A stretch of 64,000 bases of DNA from Bacillota bacterium. GTDB taxonomy: Bacteria; Bacillota; UBA994; UBA5500. The position numbers and the translations under genes are program-made. Under the pieces are notes generated by a model, which ran no database searches, was not told where the DNA came from, and was given only the letters and a program-made list of their open reading frames with translations. The stretch spans positions 11,759 through 75,758 of the forward strand of contig JBMNFA010000006.1 in assembly GCA_050949055.1 (NCBI GenBank), in the 5' to 3' direction. Shown in pieces: positions 6,111 to 63,689 of the stretch (position 1 is the stretch's first letter; each line of letters opens with the position of its first letter).

Positions 6111-7567
6111 CAGTTGCGCACCTTCCCTGTGAACATATTTGATCCTGCTCTGGCGTAGGTGAGTTTTTCTACCGGCAGCCCGTGCTTGGCCAGCAGCAGC
6201 TCGGCGATGCGCATTTGGCAGTATCCTCCCTGGCACCTGCCCATCATCGCCCTGGTGCGATTCTTAATCCCCACCACCGTGCTGACCCCCAGGGGGTTGT
6301 TGATGGCGGCCATGATCTCCGCTTTGGTCACCGTCTCGCACCGGCAGATGATTTCGCCGTAATCAGGGTCCGTCGCAATTAGCTGCTGTTGCACTTCTGG
6401 TGGTTGCTCGGCGAAAGGAACGATACCTTTGCGCATCGGGTTGAACGTTTGGTTCTTTTCCAGGGCCATCTCTTCCCCGAGCAGTTCCACCACCCGCCGG
6501 GCGATAGGAACGGCGCTGGTGAGGCCGGGGGACTCGATACCCACCAGATTGATAAAATGGGGAACCTCGGGCCGCTTCTCGATCACGAAGTCGGCGAAGC
6601 CACCTTGTTCCTTGCTGACCAGCTTGGGCCGGATGCCGCAGAAATTGCGGATAAAGAATTCCCGCTTGATATGGGGGAATATTCGGCTGCCATCTTTGAT
6701 CAACAGGTCCATAATCTCCTGGGTGGCCGCATAGTCATCCCGGGCGTCGATGTACTCGGTGCTGGGCCCGATTAACACATTGCCATCGATGGTGGGGGTG
6801 ATGTGTATACCCAGTCCACCCTCTTTGATGTTGGGCACCGGATAGGCAGGGATGTCCAAGTATTCGCCCACCCGCTGATCTAGAATGAAGTACTCTCCTC
6901 GGCAGGGGTAGATGGTATAGTCGTCGATGCCGACCATGCGGCAGATAGTGTCTGCGTGCAGGCCGGCGCAGTTGATCACCCACTGGGCTAGATACTCGCC
7001 CTGAGAGGTGATTACCCGGTAGACGGAGCCTTCCCGCAATATCTGCTGCACCTGGTGGTCGAACTTAAAGGCCACACCATTTTGATAGGCATTCTCAGCC
7101 AGCGCCACCGTATAGATGAACGGGTTGAGAATGGCGGTGGTAGGGGAATAGAGGGCGAACCTGCCGCGGACATGGGGTGCCAGTTGCTGCAGCCTGTCCT
7201 GCCCAATCAACTCCAGCCCGGGCACGCCATTGGCTTCCCCCTGAGCCTTCAGTTCCTCCAGCTTCTTGCGGTCGGCGTTGTCAAACCCAACTACCACCTT
7301 GCCTGTCCTCTTGAAGGGAATGTCCAGCTCTTTGGCTACGGTGTCAAACTCAAGATTTCCCTGCACGCAGTATTTGGCCATCAGCGTGCCCGGCCGGTTG
7401 TTGAAGCCGGCGTGCAGCACCCCAGAGTTGCGCCCGCTGGTCTCGCTACATACGTCCAGCTCCTTCTCCAACACGCAAACCTTCAGTTTGTAGCGGGAGA
7501 TTTCCCGGGCGACTGCGCTGCCTACCACTCCCGAACCGATGATAATTACGTCAAAGTCCTGCCCCAT
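6110..7567 (-). CDS. FAD-dependent oxidoreductase, GlpA/GlpD-like, with C-terminal BFD-like [2Fe-2S] domain
   Basis: N-terminal IIGSGVVGSAVARE FAD motif; C-terminal CRCETVT...CQGGYC BFD-like cysteines. Confidence 0.8.
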   Translation of the reverse strand: MGQDFDVIIIGSGVVGSAVAREISRYKLKVCVLEKELDVCSETSGRNSGVLHAGFNNRPGTLMAKYCVQGNLEFDTVAKELDIPFKRTGKVVVGFDNADRKKLEELKAQGEANGVPGLELIGQDRLQQLAPHVRGRFALYSPTTAILNPFIYTVALAENAYQNGVAFKFDHQVQQILREGSVYRVITSQGEYLAQWVINCAGLHADTICRMVGIDDYTIYPCRGEYFILDQRVGEYLDIPAYPVPNIKEGGLGIHITPTIDGNVLIGPSTEYIDARDDYAATQEIMDLLIKDGSRIFPHIKREFFIRNFCGIRPKLVSKEQGGFADFVIEKRPEVPHFINLVGIESPGLTSAVPIARRVVELLGEEMALEKNQTFNPMRKGIVPFAEQPPEVQQQLIATDPDYGEIICRCETVTKAEIMAAINNPLGVSTVVGIKNRTRAMMGRCQGGYCQMRIAELLLAKHGLPVEKLTYARAGSNMFTGKVRN

Positions 7568-25020: not shown

Positions 25021-26898
25021 GTGCCCGGCATGGGCGCTATCTACTAGGTGAAAGTCCTAAGCGGTGAAGGTAGCAGTAGCCGTAGCCTAAGGCAAGGGTG
25101 TCCACCGCGAGGTGGAATCTGAAGGAAGCCGGCGGCAAACTTCCGGCCTGAGGAACACATATCAGCTCATATGAGGCCAGTGACAGTTGGATGAGTCTGC
25201 AGCACAAGGCAAAGTCCATGCTACCGAAGGTTGTTGCTGGTAAATGAGACGGGTAGATGGAAGGAAAGATAGCGCTCTTACCCGGGGAGGCCTGCCAGGT
25301 ACGCCGACAGAGTTGGCAACCCAGACAGTGATGCCTGGCTGAACTGGCAGGAGTCAGCAGAGGCCATAGTACCTGAAGAGATATCGCTTCAGGGAAGGGC
25401 CGAACGCGAAGAAAGGAGAGCAACCGATGAGCTCGCATGGGAAGCAACGACAGCAGAAAATCCCGCAAGGGAGCTACCAGCAGGAGGAAGCAGTGAATCT
25501 GCAGGGGACTGCCGGAGCGCCTAGTTTCCCGACGGCGCGAATCGAGGAGCAATCCTGCCGGAACTGGACACATCTGATGGAGAACGTCGTATCAGAACGG
25601 AATATGAGAGAAGCGTACAAACGCGTCCTTCGGAACAAAGGAGCGGCCGGGATTGACGGAGTGGAGGTTCAGAACCTGAAACCATACCTCTGGGAACACT
25701 GGCCGCGCGTTAAGCAGGAACTGCTCGCGGGAACCTACAAGCCAAGCCCAGTCCGTCGGGTCGAAATCCCGAAACCAGACGGCGGAGTAAGGCTGCTAGG
25801 GATACCCACCGTCCTGGACCGGCTGATCCAACAAAGCCTACTACAAGTAATGAACTTCATCTTCGATCCTGACTTCTCTGAATACAGCTTCGGCTTCCGC
25901 CCTCGCCGCAGCGCGAGACAGGCGGTAACCAAAGCTAAGCAATATATCAACGAAGGCTACCGCTATGTTGTGGACATGGACCTGTCTAAGTTCTTCGACA
26001 GAGTCAACCATGACATATTGATGGCAAAGGCGGCCCGTGTAATCGGAGATAAACGAGCCCTGAAAGTTATCCGCGCATACCTCGAAGCCGGAGTCATGGT
26101 CAATGGCGTGGTACAGGAGACTGAAGAAGGGACACCTCAAGGTGGCCCGCTCAGTCCACTCCTGGCAAACATCATGCTGGATGAACTGGACAAAGAGCTA
26201 GAGAAACGGGGACACAGGTTCGTCCGTTACGCAGATGACTGCAACATTTATGTCAGAAGCAAACGGGCAGGAGAGCGAGTGATGAAGAGCATTCGCAACT
26301 TCGTGGAAGGCAAGCTTAAGCTGAAAGTCAACGAGGAGAAAAGCGCTGTTGACCGACCTTGGAAGCGCAAGTTTCTGGGGTTCTCATTCACTTCTCAACG
26401 CGAAGCCCGTATCCGAATAGCTCCTAAAACCAAACAGAGAGTCAAGGACAAAATACGGGAACTAACCAGCAGGCGCAAAAGTATGAGCATGGAAGCTCGA
26501 ATCATATCGCTAAACATGTACCTGCGTGGATGGATGGGATACTTCAAGTTGGCCGAAACTCCAAGTGTGTTCCGCGAACTTGATGAGTGGATTCGACGCC
26601 GCTTGCGCATGTGCTTGCTGAAGCAGTGGAAGAAGCCGAAAACCAGGAGGAGCGAGCTGATTAAGCTTGGCATCTCACCAGAGTCAGCTAAGAAGATTAG
26701 CGGATCACGCAAAGGTTACTGGCGACTCGCACTCACTCCACAACTAAACAAAGCCTTAGGCCTCCAGTACTGGAAGGCCCAAGGCTTATTCAGCTTAACT
26801 TCAGCATTGCCCAAAGGTTAAACTTCGCGAACCGCCGTATACCGAACGGTACGTACGGTGGTGTGAGAGGACGGGGGTTAGTCACCCCCTCCTACTCG
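25021..26898 (+). mobile_element. bacterial group II intron, class C-like (inserted directly 3' of a hairpin; RT/maturase without endonuclease domain)
   Basis: Starts GUGCCCGG right after REP-B. It contains the RT/maturase ORF. Domain V-like gaaccgccgtataccgaacggtacgtacggtgg lies at 26829-26863 and a domain VI hairpin with a bulged A at 26863-26897. The 3' boundary is approximate. Confidence 0.7.
25427..26821 (+). CDS. group II intron reverse transcriptase/maturase
   Basis: RT motifs 0-7 (...RVEIPKPDGGVRLLGIPTVLDRLIQ..., YADDCNIYV) plus the maturase X domain; 464 aa. Confidence 0.9.
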   Translation: MSSHGKQRQQKIPQGSYQQEEAVNLQGTAGAPSFPTARIEEQSCRNWTHLMENVVSERNMREAYKRVLRNKGAAGIDGVEVQNLKPYLWEHWPRVKQELLAGTYKPSPVRRVEIPKPDGGVRLLGIPTVLDRLIQQSLLQVMNFIFDPDFSEYSFGFRPRRSARQAVTKAKQYINEGYRYVVDMDLSKFFDRVNHDILMAKAARVIGDKRALKVIRAYLEAGVMVNGVVQETEEGTPQGGPLSPLLANIMLDELDKELEKRGHRFVRYADDCNIYVRSKRAGERVMKSIRNFVEGKLKLKVNEEKSAVDRPWKRKFLGFSFTSQREARIRIAPKTKQRVKDKIRELTSRRKSMSMEARIISLNMYLRGWMGYFKLAETPSVFRELDEWIRRRLRMCLLKQWKKPKTRRSELIKLGISPESAKKISGSRKGYWRLALTPQLNKALGLQYWKAQGLFSLTSALPKG

Positions 26899-31878: not shown

Positions 31879-31986
31879 ATGGGGAACAGCTTGTTGGCGG
31901 TGAAGGAAAAGCTTTATCAACTGCAGCTGGAATTGCTGCAACAAGCCACGGGGACGGTTCGGCTGACTCATCGCAACGAGTCATGA
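31879..31986 (+). CDS. Spo0E-like small ORF truncated by IS insertion (MGNSLLAVKEKLYQLQLELLQQATGTVRLTHRNES)
   Basis: SD GGAGGG 5 nt before the ATG. The helical LxxLxxEL...G.LTH pattern is like Spo0E-family phosphatases. Its stop codon is the terminal TGA of the IS. Confidence 0.3.
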   Translation: MGNSLLAVKEKLYQLQLELLQQATGTVRLTHRNES

Positions 31987-32258
31987 GGTGCCCCCTGTCG
32001 AGTTGACAAACGAAATAATGAAAGCGTTTGCTCCTTAGGAATGACCCTGAGGAGCCTTCTTTCTTGGGATGTCTTAAGCAATACAGCCAATGGTTGCTGG
32101 CCACGGCTCTCCCTGTCGGAGCCCTGAGCAGTACCACAGGGTGAGTCCCTTGACCCCTGTGCTACAATTTTGTGCGCAGAGGGGCGATGAGGTATCTGCT
32201 GTGCTCTCCCTACCATCGCCCCTCGCACCTTCGTTAAGCACAGGGAGTCAAGGGCGAT

Positions 32259-33017
32259 TTATGCACACATTCTGTACTCCATCGGGGTCAGACCAGAAAA
32301 CTTCCTTTGCGGTCGTTCTTCGTTGTAGAAGCGTATATAGTCACTTACGTCGGCTACCAGATCTTCGTAGCTCTCGTAATACTTTCTTAGGTTGTAGCGC
32401 TCTGCTTTGGGCTTGCCCCAAAATCCTTCCATGGGGCCATTGTCAATGCAGCGGCTTACTCTTGACATGCTTTGGATCATGCCCTGATTCGTGATAATCT
32501 TGGCAAAACCATAGGAAGTATATTGGAAGCCTCTATCGCTGTGAATGAGGGGCTGTGCTTCTGGATTGGCCTTCAAGGCTGCCTGCAATGTGCTAAAGAC
32601 AAGCTTGTTGTTATTCCTCTTACCAATGACATAGGCAACAATACTGTTGTCGTAAAGGTCGAGAATGGCGCTCAGGTATGCTTTCTGACCGTCGCCATAC
32701 TTGAACTCGGTTACATCTGTAAGCCATTTCTGGTTCTTCCTCAAAGCTGTGAACTTTCTGTTCAGCAGGTTCTCAGCAACATGTCCAGGCGAAGACTTTT
32801 TGTATTGTCTGCGTTTCTTTCGAGTGACCGATTTCAGACCCATAAGTCGCATCAACCGATAGATTCGTTTGAGGTTGTACGTTGCCTGTAGCCTCCGGTT
32901 CACGACCAGTTGCATCATCCTGTAGCCGTAGATACCCTTGACCTCCAGGTAGATACCAGCTATTGTGTCAGCGATTAACTCGTTTGTCCGCTCTCGCTCA
33001 CTTGGTTCCTTCTTCAA
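32259..33017 (-). CDS. IS3-family transposase OrfB (DDE integrase core); expressed as an OrfAB fusion by -1 frameshift
   Basis: IHSDRGFQYTS DDE-core motif; -1 frame relative to orfA. Confidence 0.85.
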   Translation of the reverse strand: MKKEPSERERTNELIADTIAGIYLEVKGIYGYRMMQLVVNRRLQATYNLKRIYRLMRLMGLKSVTRKKRRQYKKSSPGHVAENLLNRKFTALRKNQKWLTDVTEFKYGDGQKAYLSAILDLYDNSIVAYVIGKRNNNKLVFSTLQAALKANPEAQPLIHSDRGFQYTSYGFAKIITNQGMIQSMSRVSRCIDNGPMEGFWGKPKAERYNLRKYYESYEDLVADVSDYIRFYNEERPQRKFSGLTPMEYRMCA

Positions 33018-33133
33018 ATAATTGTAGTGCGCCTGGCGGCTGATGTTGGCAACCCTGCATAACTCAGAGATAGAGTGGCCTTTGCTGTGCAGTTCGTGGA
33101 TTGCCTGATGGAGTTTAAATCGTGGAACTCGGC

Positions 33134-33811
33134 CTAGCGATACCTCTTCTCGAGTTCCTCCAATTTTTTTAGGAATGCGTTCTCCACGCTCAGTCTGCGA
33201 ACTTCCTTCTGCAGATTACGAAGCTCAATCTTCAGCCGATCGGCCTCTGTCAACTCAGTTTCCTCTTTGGCTTTGCCTCGGCGGTCAACAAGTGCCTTCT
33301 CTCCGCCTTTGTTATACTTACTAACCCAAGAGTGAACCTGCTGGTAGCTGACCTTATAGAGCTCCGCTGCCTCCCGGTAGTTACAGTCATTGGCTATACA
33401 ATGTTGGACAATCTCTATACGCTCATCGTAGGTGGTTCTCCGCCCTTTGTTCATGTCTCTGGATTCCCCTCCTGGAGAAGACTTGAGTTCTTCTCCTTGA
33501 GTATACTTGAAAATCCAGCGCCGAAGTTGCGTTTCCTCCCTTATGCCGTACCTAAGGCAGATGTCCATTTGAGAGCCTTCTCCCGTCAGGTAGGCTTGTA
33601 CAGCTTGCATCTTAAGCTCAGCAGGATAATGATTACTACTCAATTGCCCGACCAGGGAGTCTATACCATATTCCTGTAACCTAATACGCCATCGACGTAT
33701 TGTACTCTTGCCTACGTTGAACCTGGAAACTGCCTCTTTGACTGGATGCCCTTCATCAATCCATGCAAGTATTCGTAGCTTCTCTCCCAAAGTGAACTTG
33801 CGTCCGGACAA
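33134..33811 (-). CDS. IS3-family transposase OrfA (HTH)
   Basis: HTH-rich 225 aa ending ...FLKKLEELEKRYR just after the AAAAAAA frameshift site. Confidence 0.85.
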   Translation of the reverse strand: MSGRKFTLGEKLRILAWIDEGHPVKEAVSRFNVGKSTIRRWRIRLQEYGIDSLVGQLSSNHYPAELKMQAVQAYLTGEGSQMDICLRYGIREETQLRRWIFKYTQGEELKSSPGGESRDMNKGRRTTYDERIEIVQHCIANDCNYREAAELYKVSYQQVHSWVSKYNKGGEKALVDRRGKAKEETELTEADRLKIELRNLQKEVRRLSVENAFLKKLEELEKRYR

Positions 33812-33916
33812 AAGAATGCCCCCCCCCTCAGCGACTGATGAATTTTCGTTATTTCATCTGTCAACTTTGGGGGGAGCACATCAGTCGGACCGTCCCCGTG
33901 GCTCAATTTCAGGCTA

Positions 33917-48689: not shown

Positions 48690-50548
48690 CCCTTTCCGCA
48701 CATCAAACTGGAAATTCACTCAAGGTTTTTCGGTAATCCACAAAAATAAGACAATAGAAATCAAAAAAAGACTTGACTTCTTCAGGATCACCCCAACAAT
48801 TTGTCAGAAGGAATTATTTTCCTTAATGACTAAGTTTGGGGTGATGCTTTATGAAACCCGTCGTTGTTACGCATCAAGAATACCAAGAATCTGTCCGCAC
48901 TCGATTGAGGCAGTACTACTCGGGGAGTCCACTGCTTTTGCTTCGTGAAGATTGGCCTCTTCTCGCCAAGTTCTGGATTACCGATTTGTCCGGTGTCACC
49001 GCCTTGATGCGAGACTCCTACGGCTTTCGCGGTCCCAAACCCCGCGACCCTTCCTCTATGCTGCGCTCTTTCTTGCTGCTCCTATCGACTAAACCAGAAA
49101 TGAGCATTACTGGTTGGGTAAGTGAGCTGAAAAGAATCCCTCTTTATGCCATCTTGAGCGGTTTTGAGCCTGGATGTGTGCCAGGAATCGGCACCTTCTA
49201 TGACTTCTTTGCCCGCTTGTGGAATGCCACAAGCGCTAATATCCGTTCTCCCATACAGAGAAGAGGACCCAAATCCAAGAAGGGGAGGAAAGGCCAAAAG
49301 GCTGACACATCTTCCCCAGGCCGTGTGAAACGGTTGGTCAATTGGATGAAGCGGCATTCAGAGAAGCGGACGCAATTGCCTATAGATCGGCTTTTTGGTC
49401 TCTTTCAGTCTGAATTCCTAGCTGTATCGGCTACGCTTGGCTTGCTTGGGGATACGAAGTCTCTTGCCGTCGCAGGTGATGGTACTCCTGTAGAGACCGC
49501 AGCATATCCCCGCAGCAAACCTGCCTGTAATTGTCGTGCCCAAGGCCTTGCTGACTGCAACCACCCTCGCATCTATTCTCAGCCTGACTGCGACGTCGGC
49601 TGGGATAGCTCGAGAGAGAAATACTTCGACGGGTACCACATGTACACCCTGACCGCCGCCAACAGTCCTCATGATCTACCGTTGTACCAGCGCCTGTATC
49701 CTGCTTCCCGACACGATGCTGTAAGCTTCGTGTTAAGCTCGGTTGAGTTCATGCAACGTTTCACCTTGGGCACGGTGAAGAGAGTCTTGCTCGACTCTGC
49801 GCACGATGCCAAACCCATCTATGACTTGTTGCTTGACCAGGATATTAATCCATTGATTGATCTCAACTTACGCACTTCCGCCAGCCCTAAGGCAATTCGC
49901 AATCTGAAAGTCTCGTATAACGGTAGGCCTATCTGCGCTGCTGGCCTGGAAATGAAGCATCATGGCTCAGATCGTGCCCGCATGGTAGACAAGTGGTTGT
50001 GTCCCAGAATGACAGGCAGGACGACTCACAACTGCCCAACTCCTTGTACCACCGCCCGTTACGGGAAAACGTGTCGTACCTACCGCAAGGACAATCCCAG
50101 ACTGTTCACTGACCCTCCTCGCGACTCGGATCAATGGAACCTTCTCTACAAGAGGCGCACCTCCGTCGAGCGCACTAACAAACGTGAGAAAAGAGACTAC
50201 AAGCTTCAGTCTGGGCAGCATCGTTCTTCTCGCATGTGGTACATGCGTACTTACGGCATCATGATGTGCCAGCACATTGACGCTTGGTACGTCCATCGAC
50301 GAACGGAGCTTGAAGAACTAATGCCTCTCTTCCCACATCTGTCAGCCTAAGCCCGAGCTACTCTCGTTGCTTCTAGGTTTCTTCGGCATGCCCTTCGTTT
50401 CTACCTGCCTGAAGTCTCTCTTCTACTCATTTGAGTAGCTCGCTTTCCCAGTTGTTTTCCTCCATGCATGGAAATTATTGCTTCGAAACTCCGAGAGGAT
50501 ACGTAGCAGCGGCAAACACCAACACGGCAAGAAGTGCGGAAAGAGGCT
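48690..50548 (+). mobile_element. possible extent of the IS carrying the 48851-50350 transposase; boundaries are weak
   Basis: Only a 10-12-bp inverted match (ctttccgcac) was found, at 48693-48704 and 50533-50548. It lies between the ilvE terminator and the proC T-box leader. Confidence 0.25.
48851..50350 (+). CDS. IS4/IS5-superfamily DDE transposase (IS1182-like)
   Basis: C-terminal YKRRTSVERTNKREK fits the Y-(2)-R-(3)-E-(6)-K signature; DDE region GDGTPVE...LLDSAHD. Confidence 0.75.
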   Translation: MKPVVVTHQEYQESVRTRLRQYYSGSPLLLLREDWPLLAKFWITDLSGVTALMRDSYGFRGPKPRDPSSMLRSFLLLLSTKPEMSITGWVSELKRIPLYAILSGFEPGCVPGIGTFYDFFARLWNATSANIRSPIQRRGPKSKKGRKGQKADTSSPGRVKRLVNWMKRHSEKRTQLPIDRLFGLFQSEFLAVSATLGLLGDTKSLAVAGDGTPVETAAYPRSKPACNCRAQGLADCNHPRIYSQPDCDVGWDSSREKYFDGYHMYTLTAANSPHDLPLYQRLYPASRHDAVSFVLSSVEFMQRFTLGTVKRVLLDSAHDAKPIYDLLLDQDINPLIDLNLRTSASPKAIRNLKVSYNGRPICAAGLEMKHHGSDRARMVDKWLCPRMTGRTTHNCPTPCTTARYGKTCRTYRKDNPRLFTDPPRDSDQWNLLYKRRTSVERTNKREKRDYKLQSGQHRSSRMWYMRTYGIMMCQHIDAWYVHRRTELEELMPLFPHLSA

Positions 50549-50865
50549 TCCGGCGGAAGCCTCTTTTGTCGTCTTGTTGCCAACTGCTAGCTGCAGAGCT
50601 GCGCACTAAAGCTGCCGTCCCAGTGAAGGTTCTCGCAAATAGGAGACAAGTCTCTCAGGCCAGAGTCCAAGTTGGAACGACCGCGAGCCTCAGTTTCCTC
50701 CAGACTGGCCGCAGCCTGCTTCATTCGGGCTGTGGTCGCTAACCGCACCGTATTGCCACTTTGCTTGGGGATGGGAGGCTGGACAGTGGAAACTGGTACC
50801 ATTGATCTCTAGTCTGCATTGCAGCATAATGATTGACATGCGATGAAGGGAACGAGTAAGCCCTG

Positions 50866-59490: not shown

Positions 59491-60198
59491 ATGATACCAA
59501 CGCCACACATCGCCGTTTCCGAGCAGGGGATCATCGCTGAGACCATTTTGCTGCCAGGAGATCCGCTGCGCGCCAAGTTCATTGCTGACAAATACCTGGA
59601 GGGGGTTGTTCAGTTTAACGGCACCAGAAACATGCTCGGCTTCACAGGTACCTACCACGGTAAACGAGTTTCAGTGATGGGGACCGGCATGGGCATGCCT
59701 TCCATCGGTATCTATTCTTACGAGCTGATCCACTTCTATGGGGTGAAGAACTTGATCCGCGTCGGTTCCTGCGGGGCTTTCCAGCCAGATATCAAGGTGC
59801 GAGACATCATCGTCGGCATGTCTGCTTCCACTGACTCCAATTTCGCAGAGCAGTATGCCTTGCCTGGCACCTATGCTCCCACCGCCTCCTGGTCGTTGCT
59901 CAAGCGGGCTGTGGATGTGGCCGAGAGCAAAGGGATCCCAGTCAAAGTAGGCAACATCCTATCTTCGGACGTCTTTTACGGCGATGACCCCGAATCATGG
60001 AAGAGATGGGCCAAGATGGGCGTGCTGGCGGTGGAGATGGAAGCGGCTGCGCTGTACATGAATGCCGCCCGTGCCGGCGTCGACGCCCTCTGCATTCTCA
60101 CAGTGTCCGACTCGCTGGTCTCCCATCAGCTGGTCAGCGCTGAGGAAAGGCAGAACACGTTCACGCAGATGATGGAGATAGCGCTGGAGTTGGCATAG
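59491..60198 (+). CDS. deoD: purine nucleoside phosphorylase, DeoD type
   Basis: 235 aa; conserved DeoD family sequence ([10 protein letters not shown]..., [19 protein letters not shown]); SD ggagggg before the ATG. Confidence 0.9.
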
Positions 60199-60264
60199 TG
60201 TGACAGAGGGACGGATCTTTTGTCACACGCGGCGTGTGACAAAAGATCCGTCCCTCTGTCACAT
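60198..60264. repeat. REP family D: intact 67-bp palindrome gtgtgacagagggacggatcttttgtcacacg-cgg-cgtgtgacaaaagatccgtccctctgtcacat
   Basis: Near-perfect 30-bp arms; the same element is split by IS copy 2 at 61726-61765 / 63664-63689. Confidence 0.8.
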
Positions 60265-61076: not shown

Positions 61077-61712
61077 CTAAACGAGGCCAGATCGTGCGTG
61101 TTGCTGTGCTGCCCTTTCCGGCTTCCACTCCTGCCAGATGCGTCCTGCCGTCTGCAGGTCCCCAGACAAGGCGCTGTCTCCGGGTTGCCAACCGGCGGGT
61201 ATGGAAGCCCCGCTGCTCTGTTGCTCTTGGCAGGCCTGGATGATCCTGATCAATTCATCCACGTTGCGGCCAACCGAAGAGGGCAGGACCTCCACCAACT
61301 GCACCACTCCTTGGGGATCTATCAGGAAGTGCGCCCGTTGATTTACTCCCTGCTGCTGGTCGTAGGTGCCGAACATGCTGCCCAACTTCCCACCGCGGTC
61401 TGCCCCTAGTGGGAAGGGTACCGCTGCGCCGATCAATTCCTTCAGTTCAACCTCGTCCCACAGCTTGTGTGCGTTGACGCTGTCCACGCTGACACCAATT
61501 ACCTCGACGCCCAGCTCCTGCAGTTTGGGATAGCGCACGGCCATCATGGCTATCTCGGTCGGTCAGACTGGCGTGAAGTCTCCGCTATAGAAGTGCAACA
61601 CATGCCAGCGCCCGCTCAGTTCAGACGAGTGCATCTGGCGACTGCCGCCTTCTTGGTACACTTCCAACGACCAGCTGGGCGAGGCCGATCCCACGGTGGG
61701 AAACATAGGCAT
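61077..61712 (-). CDS. peroxiredoxin (AhpC/Prx1 subfamily) with an in-frame TGA at the peroxidatic-Cys position; candidate selenocysteine peroxiredoxin, about 211 aa
   Basis: The reading frame is continuous from ATG 61710-61712 (SD ggagg) through the TGA at 61563-65 (minus strand): ...VLHFYSGDFTPV-U-PTEIAMMAVRY...GVEVIGVSVDS, which matches FYPLDFTFVCPTE of Prx. A hairpin lies 9 nt downstream of the UGA (61529-61554). The resolving Cys is absent (SIPAGW instead of VCPAxW). Confidence 0.6.
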
Positions 61713-61725
61713 ACCTCCAATCGTA

Positions 61726-61765
61726 TGTGACGGAGGGACGGATCTTTTGTCACACGCGTGTGACA
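61726..61765. repeat. REP family D left half, interrupted by IS copy 2
   Basis: tgtgacggagggacggatcttttgtcacacgcgtgtgaca abuts the IS terminus. Confidence 0.75.
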
Positions 61766-62040
61766 TGAGGTGCCCCCTGTCGAGTTGACAAACGAAATAA
61801 TGAAAGCGTTTGCTCCTTAGGAATGACCCTGAGGAGCCTTCTTTCTTGGGATGTCTTAAGCAATACAGCCAATGGTTGCTGGCCACGGCTCTCCCTGTCG
61901 GAGCCCTGAGCAGTACCACAGGGTGAGTCCCTTGACCCCTGTGCTACAATTTTGTGCGCAGAGGGGCGATGAGGTATCTGCTGTGCTCTCCCTGCCATCG
62001 CCCCTCGCACCCTCGTTAAGCACAGGGAGTCAAGGGCGAT

Positions 62041-62799
62041 TTATGCACACATTCTGTACTCCATCGGGGTCAGACCAGAAAACTTCCTTTGCGGTCGTTC
62101 TTCGTTGTAGAAGCGTATATAGTCACTTACGTCGGCTACCAGATCTTCGTAGCTCTCGTAATACTTTCTTAGGTTGTAGCGCTCTGCTTTGAGCTTACCC
62201 CAAAATCCTTCCATGGGGCCATTGTCAATGCAGCGGCTTACTCTTGACATGCTTTGGATCATGCCCTGATTCGTGATAATCTTGGCAAAACCATAGGAAG
62301 TATATTGGAAGCCTCTATCGCTGTGAATGAGGGGCTGTGCTTCTGGATTGGCCTTCAAGGCTGCCTGCAATGTGCTAAAGACAAGCTTGTTGTTATTCCT
62401 CTTACCAATGACATAGGCAACAATACTGTTGTCGTAAAGGTCGAGAATGGCGCTCAGGTATGCTTTCTGGCCGTCGCCATACTTGAACTCGGTTACATCT
62501 GTAAGCCATTTCTGGTTCTTCCTCAAAGCTGTGAACTTTCTGTTCAGCAGGTTCTCAGCAACATGTCCAGGCGAAGACTTTTTGTATTGTCTGCGTTTCT
62601 TTCGAGTGACCGATTTCAGACCCATCAGTCGCATCAACCGATAGATTCGTTTAAGGTTGTACGTTGCCTGTAGCCTCCGGTTCACGACCAGTTGCATCAT
62701 CCTGTAGCCGTAGATACCCTTGACCTCCAAGTAGATACCAGCTATTGTGTCAGCGATTAACTCGTTTGTCCGCTCTCGCTCACTTGGTTCCTTCTTCAA
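62041..62799 (-). CDS. IS3-family transposase OrfB (copy 2)
   Basis: Near-identical to 32259-33017 (one P/L difference). Confidence 0.85.
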   Translation of the reverse strand: MKKEPSERERTNELIADTIAGIYLEVKGIYGYRMMQLVVNRRLQATYNLKRIYRLMRLMGLKSVTRKKRRQYKKSSPGHVAENLLNRKFTALRKNQKWLTDVTEFKYGDGQKAYLSAILDLYDNSIVAYVIGKRNNNKLVFSTLQAALKANPEAQPLIHSDRGFQYTSYGFAKIITNQGMIQSMSRVSRCIDNGPMEGFWGKLKAERYNLRKYYESYEDLVADVSDYIRFYNEERPQRKFSGLTPMEYRMCA

Positions 62800-62915
62800 A
62801 TAATTGTAGTGCGCCTGGCGGCTGATGTTGGCAACCCTGCATAACTCAGAGATAGAGTGGCCTTTGCTGTGCAGTTCGTGGATTGCCTGATGGAGTTTAA
62901 ATCGTGGAACTCGGC

Positions 62916-63659
62916 CTAGCGATACCTCTTCTCGAGTTCCTCCAATTTTTTTAGGAATGCGTTCTCCACGCTCAGTCTGCGAACTTCCTTCTGCAGATTA
63001 CGAAGCTCAATCTTCAGCCGATCGGCCTCTGTCAACTCAGTTTCTTCTTTGGCTTTGCCTCGGCGGTCAACAAGTGCCTTCTCTCCGCCTTTGTTATACT
63101 TACTAACCCAAGAGTGAACCTGCTGGTAGCTGACCTTATAGCGCTCCGCTGCCTCCCGGTAGTTACAGTCATTGGCTATACAATGTCGGACAATCTCTAT
63201 ACGCTCATCGTAGGTGGTTCTCCGCCCTTTGTTCATGTCTCTGGATTCCCCTCCTGGAGAAGACTTGAGTTCTTCTCCTTGAGTATACTTGAAAATCCAG
63301 CGCCGAAGTTGCGTTTCCTCCCTTATGCCGTACCTAAGGCAGATGTCCATTTGAGAGCCTTCTCCCGTCAGGTAGGCTTGTACAGCTTGCATCTTAAGCT
63401 CAGCAGGATAATGATTACTACTCAATTGCCCGACCAGGGAGTCTATACCATATTCCTGTAACCTAATACGCCATCGACGTATTGTACTCTTGCCTACGTT
63501 GAACCTGGAAACTGCCTCTTTGACTGGATGCCCTTCATCAATCCATGCAAGTATTCGTAGCTTCTCTCCCAAAGTGAACTTGCGTCCGGACAAAAGAATG
63601 CCCCCCCTCAGCGACTGATGAATTTTCGTTATTTCATCTGTCAACTTTGGGGGGAGCAC
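62916..63659 (-). CDS. IS3-family transposase OrfA (copy 2; N-terminally extended reading frame from a GTG near the IR because of a 7-C rather than 9-C tract)
   Basis: Same protein as 33134-33811 with 22 extra N-terminal residues. Confidence 0.8.
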   Translation of the reverse strand: MLPPKLTDEITKIHQSLRGGILLSGRKFTLGEKLRILAWIDEGHPVKEAVSRFNVGKSTIRRWRIRLQEYGIDSLVGQLSSNHYPAELKMQAVQAYLTGEGSQMDICLRYGIREETQLRRWIFKYTQGEELKSSPGGESRDMNKGRRTTYDERIEIVRHCIANDCNYREAAERYKVSYQQVHSWVSKYNKGGEKALVDRRGKAKEETELTEADRLKIELRNLQKEVRRLSVENAFLKKLEELEKRYR

Positions 63660-63663
63660 ATCA

Positions 63664-63689
63664 ACAAAAGATCCGTCCCTCCGTCACAC
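63664..63689. repeat. REP family D right half
   Basis: acaaaagatccgtccctccgtcacac immediately after the IS. Confidence 0.75.

Follow-up and report, generated by a model that had tools for sequence, protein, structure and literature searches.

Repetitive extragenic palindromic (REP) sequences are palindromes of 21-65 nt that are located outside genes, usually in more than 100 copies per genome, and they are associated with a gene for a tyrosine transposase (REP-associated tyrosine transposase, RAYT). Here we analysed a 64,000-nt stretch of a Bacillota genome (contig JBMNFA010000006.1 of assembly GCA_050949055.1, positions 11,759 to 75,758; this whole stretch is called the window), in which two copies of an insertion sequence (IS) of the IS3 family are each located inside a long palindrome. 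An earlier report describes specific insertion into REPs for IS1397 of E. coli and ISKpn1 of Klebsiella, both of the IS3 family, with the target specificity set by the transposase, whose N-terminal DNA-binding part chooses the target (PMC1525189). For ISPsy8 of Pseudomonas syringae, also of the IS3 family, all five genomic copies were found in REPs, at one fixed position and with a 3-bp repeat (PMC1525189). Insertion into REPs at a fixed site is ascribed in the same report to IS621, ISPpu9 and ISPpu10 of the IS110 family (PMC1525189), and a guide RNA for target choice has been described for IS110/IS1111-type elements (bioRxiv 2024.04.26.591405). IS110-family elements have a DEDD transposase, whereas the window element has a DDE transposase and belongs to another family. 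IS1272/TnSha1 of Staphylococcus (IS1182 family) targets hairpins, including proven terminators, with no consensus in the primary sequence (PMC4923244). It is of a different family and removes part of the stem without producing a duplication, in contrast to the clean 3-bp duplications of the window element and its relatives.

The window element resembles IS1397 and ISKpn1 in being an IS3-family element inserted into palindromic repeats, and its palindrome targeting is the kind of behaviour known from IS1397, ISKpn1 and ISPsy8. It differs from the first two, whose hosts are Gammaproteobacteria, in its uncultured Bacillota host, in the length of its palindromes (56-67 bp), in its insertion into the arm at a fixed distance from a sequence box, in its own length of 1.9 kb and in an extra helix-turn-helix in OrfA. 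IS1397 and ISKpn1 are reportedly about 1.43 kb long and insert into the loop of short palindromic units of about 35 nt. The insertion point of ISPsy8 is the symmetry axis of a predicted hairpin, and both its host phylum and its REP family differ from those of the window element. The IS1397-like behaviour that had been proposed for this locus in an earlier reading of the sequence (the original prediction) was retained for palindrome targeting and not for the point of insertion, which is in the arm, 6-7 nt inside the box, and not in the loop. IS3-family palindrome targeting was established before in enterobacteria and Pseudomonas; added here is a case in an uncultured Bacillota, in which the repeat family is different and the site is off-centre and in register with a box. 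As far as our literature search reached, REP-type IS3 targeting had not previously been reported in Firmicutes.

The target site of IS copy 2 was rebuilt from the following features, given in window coordinates.

60198-60264, no strand: intact, unoccupied palindrome (REP-D), 67 bp, with perfect 32-nt arms at 60199-60230 and 60232-60263
61726-61765, no strand: first part of the split palindrome, made up of one of its arms, its centre and 9 nt from the second arm (sequence, alignment)
61763-61765, no strand: first copy of the target-site duplication ACA (alignment)
61766-63663, minus strand: IS copy 2, 1898 bp, IS3 family, probably IS150 group, with the transposase on the minus strand
63664-63689, no strand: second copy of ACA (63664-63666), followed by the remaining palindrome arm (sequence, alignment)

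REP-D separates a lipoprotein gene from the stop codon of a purine-nucleoside phosphorylase gene, and the first part of the split palindrome precedes the start codon of a peroxiredoxin gene by 13 nt. After 61765 IS copy 2 begins with TGAGGTGCC..., and it ends with ...GAGCACATCA at 63663. When 61766-63663 and one ACA were taken out, so that 61726-61765 was joined to 63667-63689, a perfect 62-bp palindrome was obtained, which as single-stranded DNA folds at -37.5 kcal/mol (z = -14 compared to shuffles). In comparison to intact REP-D, the restored palindrome has one A-to-G change that is mirrored on the opposite arm, so that pairing is preserved, one different terminal base, and a centre that is 3 nt shorter (ACGCGT vs ACGCGGCGT). 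The ends of the element are fixed by three independent lines, namely by IS copy 1 at 31984-33883, which shares exactly the same span, by two contigs (L007 and L008) that are exactly 1898 bp long and run from TGATGTGC to CCTCA, and by the alignment of the two ends, which pair as an imperfect inverted repeat of about 40 bp. The junction between copy 2 and the palindrome was also found in JGI and Logan contigs (L091, L092 and L006). For a 19-nt core of the palindrome three occurrences were counted in the window, compared to 0.00 expected in shuffles, and an Rfam scan of the palindrome gave only hairpin look-alikes below threshold.

The original prediction had placed an intact 67-bp palindrome at 60198-60264 and a split one around IS copy 2, with IS ends at 61766/63663, a 3-bp ACA duplication and a palindrome that returns once the IS and one ACA are removed. 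Its coordinates for the intact palindrome were confirmed by reading and alignment, and every coordinate of the split palindrome by base-by-base alignment of 61726-61765 plus 63664-63689 with 60198-60264. The ends, both copies of ACA and the restored palindrome likewise agree with the results above.

IS copy 1 is found in a different palindrome of the same superfamily, with these features.

31946-31983, no strand: part of the palindrome (CCACGGGGACGGTTCGGCTGACTC-ATCGCAAC-GAGTCA), split by IS copy 1
31984-33883, minus strand: IS copy 1, 1900 bp, separated from copy 2 by 11 substitutions and by a homopolymer run that is longer by 2 G
33884-33901, no strand: remaining palindrome arm (GTCGGACCGTCCCCGTGG); the stop codon of an FAD-linked oxidase gene is 15 nt before it

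The order at this site is CCACGGGGACGGTTCGGCTGACTC, loop and GAGTCA, then the IS, then GTCGGACCGTCCCCGTGG, and the rebuilt target is a 56-nt hairpin of -34.6 kcal/mol (z = -12). No duplication was visible at first at the window junction, where one TCA/TGA unit has been lost. In the Logan contig L107, which covers the same locus, ...GGTTCGGC-TGA is followed by TGATGTGC, compared to ...GGTCCGAC followed by TGATGTGC in the window and in contig L108. Because L107 keeps TGA at the junction, the original duplication of copy 1 was identified as TGA, and the window copy has lost one unit of a TGATGA tandem and gained two substitutions in the adjacent arm (33884-33890). The pristine junction kept by another population, represented by L107, also means that the copy 1 insertion is common to diverging strains. 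An 80%-identical ortholog of the oxidase in a more distant relative had no palindrome downstream, so that it provided no empty site for copy 1.

To survey further loci of the same element, look-ups with exact protein products were done, which gave ten short metagenome contigs at least 99.5% identical to the element; such look-ups with orfA of copy 2 and orfB of copy 1 gave no matches. When metagenome contigs were searched for a degenerate pattern of the two ends, five contigs only were obtained, all of them with other related elements that have similar tips. The metagenome contigs added three loci, namely a second REP-D locus, in which the element had entered at the identical base, and two further palindromes. 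Two contig pairs rebuild the palindromes GGACATGGGGACGGTTCTTG[GTG]TCCGG... and GGACATGGGGACGGTTCTGTT[TGT]CC..., and a TGT duplication was found in L004. The rebuilt targets are all very stable hairpins (-29 to -40 kcal/mol).

Based on these loci we discovered that the distance from the box GGGGACGG to the start of the duplication is nearly constant (6, 6, 6, 7 and 6 nt at five loci). The distance from the duplication to the dyad was more variable, at 5.5-10.5 nt at the same five loci. The duplication is located inside the stem, 2 to 8 bp below the loop, and not at the loop or the symmetry axis. Orientation was constant as well, with the orfA end facing the GGGGACGG box at all five loci. These are direct observations, as are the anatomy of the element, its ends and its duplication. 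Only three palindromes with a GGGACGGWTC box are present in the 64-kb window, and the two IS copies are within two of them; by rough arithmetic the chance of two random hits on box palindromes is about 1e-5, and chance association of the IS with the palindromes is excluded. At least six of the seven distinct loci of the same element are in palindromes with the GGGGACGG box. The other copies, on whose association with the palindromes the original prediction turned, were also found in palindromes of the same superfamily and in the same register. Its proposal of targeting to REP-D was upheld as far as the copies are in palindromes, and was widened in that the targets are a superfamily sharing the GGGGACGG box and not REP-D alone.

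Relatives of the element were collected by a protein-guided scan of reference genomes, which gave 80 loci, nearly all in Firmicutes, with OrfB 50-60% identical. In 41 of the 80 loci conserved tips allowed the ends to be called, and usable flanks were available in 40 of these. The best match in the genome collection was L012, a single metagenome-assembled genome (MAG) with 86% OrfB identity. A perfect 3-bp duplication was found in 27 of the 40 relatives, and their rebuilt sites had a median folding energy of -12.3 kcal/mol, compared to -4.0 at random positions (Mann-Whitney p about 1e-17). In 29 of the 40 (72%) the duplication coincides with the apical loop of a hairpin whose stem is at least 6 bp long, with offsets centred on zero, compared to 282 of 2100 random control positions (13%; binomial p = 2.6e-17). 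Many of the relatives' sites are terminator-like, in the order A-run, stem, loop, stem, T-run, and convergent gene ends flank 14 of 30 sites. The orientation of the relatives with respect to the terminated gene (2 co-directional, 7 opposite, 14 between convergent genes) gave no usable bias, and counts of A-runs and T-runs at the sites were indecisive.

In Erysipelothrix, an Acholeplasmataceae MAG, Sporomusa and Lederbergia the flanks vary between copies of a relative in a single genome, and because of this the hairpins are targets and not parts of the elements. In B. thuringiensis a site occupied on plasmid pCT281 has an empty counterpart on pHD120345, where a single TTC is found at the foot of the hairpin GAATCCTTATAATAAGGATTC; on pCT281 the IS has a TTC on either side. 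An IS200/IS605-family tnpA is found about 350 bp upstream of this insertion site on pCT281 (L110, 884-1288), which may be coincidental. A few relatives are located in long REP-like palindromes. In two MAGs, of a Syntrophomonadaceae (L016) and a Clostridiales member (L073), the relatives are inside long perfect palindromes that are not terminators, and one of these palindromes (AAGTCCGGGGACAG/CTGTCCCCGGACTT) has a GGGGAC motif resembling the box of the window.

Taken as a whole, the results are probably best explained by an element that targets box palindromes at a fixed register and in a fixed orientation. In the proposed mechanism, a -1 shift at a run of seven A (A7) would join orfA (DNA binding) and orfB (DDE) into an OrfAB transposase. 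From what is known of the IS3 family, transposition would proceed by a copied-out circle, followed by paste-in with a 3-bp staggered cut. The targets chosen would be long hairpin-forming palindromes with a GGGGACGG(A/T)TC box in each arm, and the cut would set the 3-bp duplication 6 (once 7) nt past the box on the dyad side, with the orfA-proximal end facing the box and the orfB-distal end facing the dyad. Register and orientation would be set by the N-terminal DNA-binding part of the transposase, which may dock on the box and/or on the extruded hairpin. Recognition of hairpin structure may be the ancestral property, to which the lineage in the window would have added a sequence register. Recognition of structure is the simplest reading for the clade because the relatives hit hairpins that share symmetry and not sequence, and the tight distance from box to cut is the reason for assuming an added sequence component in the window element. 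We hold tentatively, at somewhat less than even odds, the wider proposal that a Firmicutes clade of the IS150 group, with three helix-turn-helix units in OrfA and TGATATGCTCCCC...GACAGGGAGCAGTTCA ends, reads hairpin structure and makes clean 3-bp duplications at the dyads of intrinsic terminators and of REP-like palindromes, and that the window element has added the box and the 6-nt distance.

Several points weigh against targeting at a fixed register. One contig (L010) has the element in a box-bearing palindrome at an apparently different position, as seen from one flank, another (L009) has no box in its single flank, and the closest relative, L012, is not visibly in a palindrome. The full register was obtained from only five loci, two of which were pieced together from contigs of different samples, and the census of loci covers the window and the metagenome contigs. 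Surviving insertions are also biased to harmless intergenic sites, and the evidence for targeting is from sequence comparison.

It was also considered that targeting might be purely structural, directed to any extruded hairpin or cruciform, with the constant box distance arising only because the host palindromes are built alike. The relatives, which insert at the dyads of hairpins without shared sequence, and the high stability of all the rebuilt targets here (-29 to -40 kcal/mol) are in agreement with this. However, the duplication of the window element is not at the tip but 2 to 8 bp down the stem from the loop, the box distance is much tighter than the dyad distance, and hairpins of the ordinary terminator-like kind in the window, for example at 50540-50570, are unoccupied, which makes a purely structural choice rather unlikely for this element. 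An improbable reading is that the box imitates the termini of the element (GGGGGCACCTCA, GGGAGCACATCA vs GGGGACGGWTCT), so that the transposase binds a false end and inserts beside it. Insertion next to a false end has reportedly been described for IS911. A weak resemblance of box and terminus was noted by eye, and the fixed orientation sets the real end 5-6 nt from the false one, but the two are alike over a short stretch, at about 7-8 of 12 positions, and the targets of the relatives do not resemble their own ends.

Random insertion, with survival only in harmless intergenic palindromes, would fit the intergenic position of all sites. A bias in survival cannot, however, yield the same base-level register and orientation at five loci, nor the enrichment of 72% vs 13% at hairpin tips, since the random positions include other intergenic DNA, and absence of targeting is therefore very improbable. 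That the palindrome arms are longer terminal repeats of the element itself, or an assembly artefact at a repeat, is scarcely credible. Assemblies do break at these palindromes, but the loop and part of the second arm are on one side only, so that the ends are not symmetric, and the flanks vary between copies while the 1898 bp are constant. Identical junctions are moreover present in NCBI, JGI and Logan assemblies, and intact palindromes occur without the element. Fixed-register targeting of box palindromes is the reading that we retain.

Such insertions spare coding sequence but split terminators or 3' hairpins, and can in this way change read-through into neighbouring genes. The behaviour of inserting into palindromes or hairpins is common to many related elements in terminator hairpins across Firmicutes. 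For annotation, the ends of such elements can be predicted from the split hairpins, and the breaks of metagenome assemblies at these points are explained. A literature search found no report of IS3-family insertion into terminators or terminator loops, but this search was incomplete and is not proof of novelty. If it has not already been described, hairpin targeting across the clade is a more interesting lead than the window element itself. If true and unreported, hairpin reading by the clade would offer a natural system for studying the detection of palindromes by DDE transposases, and possibly a tool for insertion at safe sites in Gram-positive bacteria.

The anatomy of the element was determined on copy 2, with the following features.

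61766-61805, no strand: terminal inverted repeat at the orfB-distal end (TGAGGTGCCCCCTGTCGAGTTGACAAACGAAATAATGAAA), from end alignment and pattern matches
61929-62036, minus strand: hairpin of about 108 nt in a 275-bp non-coding stretch after orfB, from folding; it belongs to the element
62041-62799, minus strand: orfB, the DDE catalytic part (Pfam rve 9.6e-19, HTH_21, rve_2, rve_3)
62916-63593, minus strand: orfA, starting at TTG and 225 aa long; it has three helix-turn-helix units, and its tail resembles a leucine zipper
62946-62952, minus strand: A7 slippery run (CTA AAA AAA TTG) near the end of orfA, from a frame check
63624-63663, no strand: terminal inverted repeat at the orfA-proximal end (reverse complement TGATGTGCTCCCCCCAAAGTTGACAGATGAAATAACGAAA), from end alignment and pattern matches

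The termini have the form 5'-TG...CA-3' (TGAGGTGC... and ...GCACATCA). Pfam matched orfA to HTH_28 in three stretches, to HTH_23 and to HTH_Tnp_1. The -1 frame is open across the A7 run into orfB, the frame of which stays open upstream to the run, and the relatives have an A6G or A7 run at the matching position. The rve, HTH_21 and HTH_28 domains, the TG...CA ends, a duplication of 3 bp, which is within the 3-4 bp of this family, and the A7 run with its open -1 frame support the assignment to the IS3 family that had been made in the original prediction, and the transposase and ends were also compared with those of IS150, as it had proposed. OrfB was 40% identical to IS150 InsK (E = 2e-55), OrfA was 28% identical to InsJ with one extra N-terminal unit, and the termini (TGATGTGCTCCCCCCAAAGTTGACAGATGAAAT...) are similar to those of IS150 (TGTACTGCACCCATTTTGTTGGACGATGAAAT...). 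By its sequence the element is classified as an intact IS3-family insertion sequence, probably of the IS150 group, where the comparison at the level of the group was made with IS150 only. It resembles E. coli IS150 in the layout of two open reading frames (ORFs) with a -1 frameshift and in its terminal sequences, whereas IS150 is 1443 bp long, has a two-unit OrfA and no long 3' tail, and its copy in K-12 is in the hokA locus and not in a REP. The IS1447 subgroup is a Firmicutes-enriched IS3 group that has TA ends, requires a +1 shift and carries an A-run where orfA and orfB meet (PMC6211511). The window element shares with it the A-run at this junction and the Firmicutes host, but its TG ends and -1 frame exclude membership.

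The 280-nt tail after orfB folds at -117.5 kcal/mol (z = -4.8). Within the window its hairpin of about 108 nt is confined to the two IS copies (61929-62036 and 32147-32254). It is conserved in the 75%-identical relative L012 (about 6780-6900) and is absent from shorter relatives of about 1.67-1.72 kb. The 3' tail and its hairpin had no match in Rfam; the hairpin may have arisen as a captured palindrome, or it may act as an RNA stabiliser or be a small RNA. A G run, read in the sense of the transposase, is found just before the start of orfA, with 7 G in copy 2 (63602-63608) and 9 G in copy 1 (33820-33828). It overlaps a likely ribosome-binding site, and it alters which start codon opens the ORF; the run may modulate expression.

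The assignment of the host to Firmicutes in the original prediction is in agreement with database proteins identical to the phosphorylase and the oxidase of the window, which are labelled 'MAG: Bacillota bacterium'. On a contig of a related species (L100, phosphorylase 89% identical) REP-D is present in the same spacer. The palindromes are candidate REPs, 56-67 nt long, and all copies in the window are intergenic and adjoin gene ends. Three box palindromes were seen in the 64 kb and four at other loci on contigs. Several metagenome assemblies end inside REP-D, which is expected of a repeated or palindromic sequence. On one JGI contig (L102, 3300060804) the first bases of REP-D (...tagtgtg; window 60204) are followed by the reverse complement of window 50501-50469. 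This join suggests either that about 9.7 kb have been inverted, one of the breakpoints being at the edge of REP-D, or that the assembly folded back at the palindrome.

Two further observations were made in the window. The peroxiredoxin gene next to copy 2 (61077-61712, minus strand) has an in-frame TGA at the position of the catalytic cysteine (DFTPV*PTEIA), and gene callers split it into products of 47 aa and 156 aa. The product may be a selenocysteine peroxiredoxin, or the gene may be a pseudogene; Rfam reported no selenocysteine insertion sequence (SECIS) family for it. A group II intron was found on the plus strand at 25101-26821. Its domains D1-D4 (25101-25400) scored well above threshold in Rfam, and an ORF of 464 aa downstream of them (25427-26821) may encode its reverse transcriptase.

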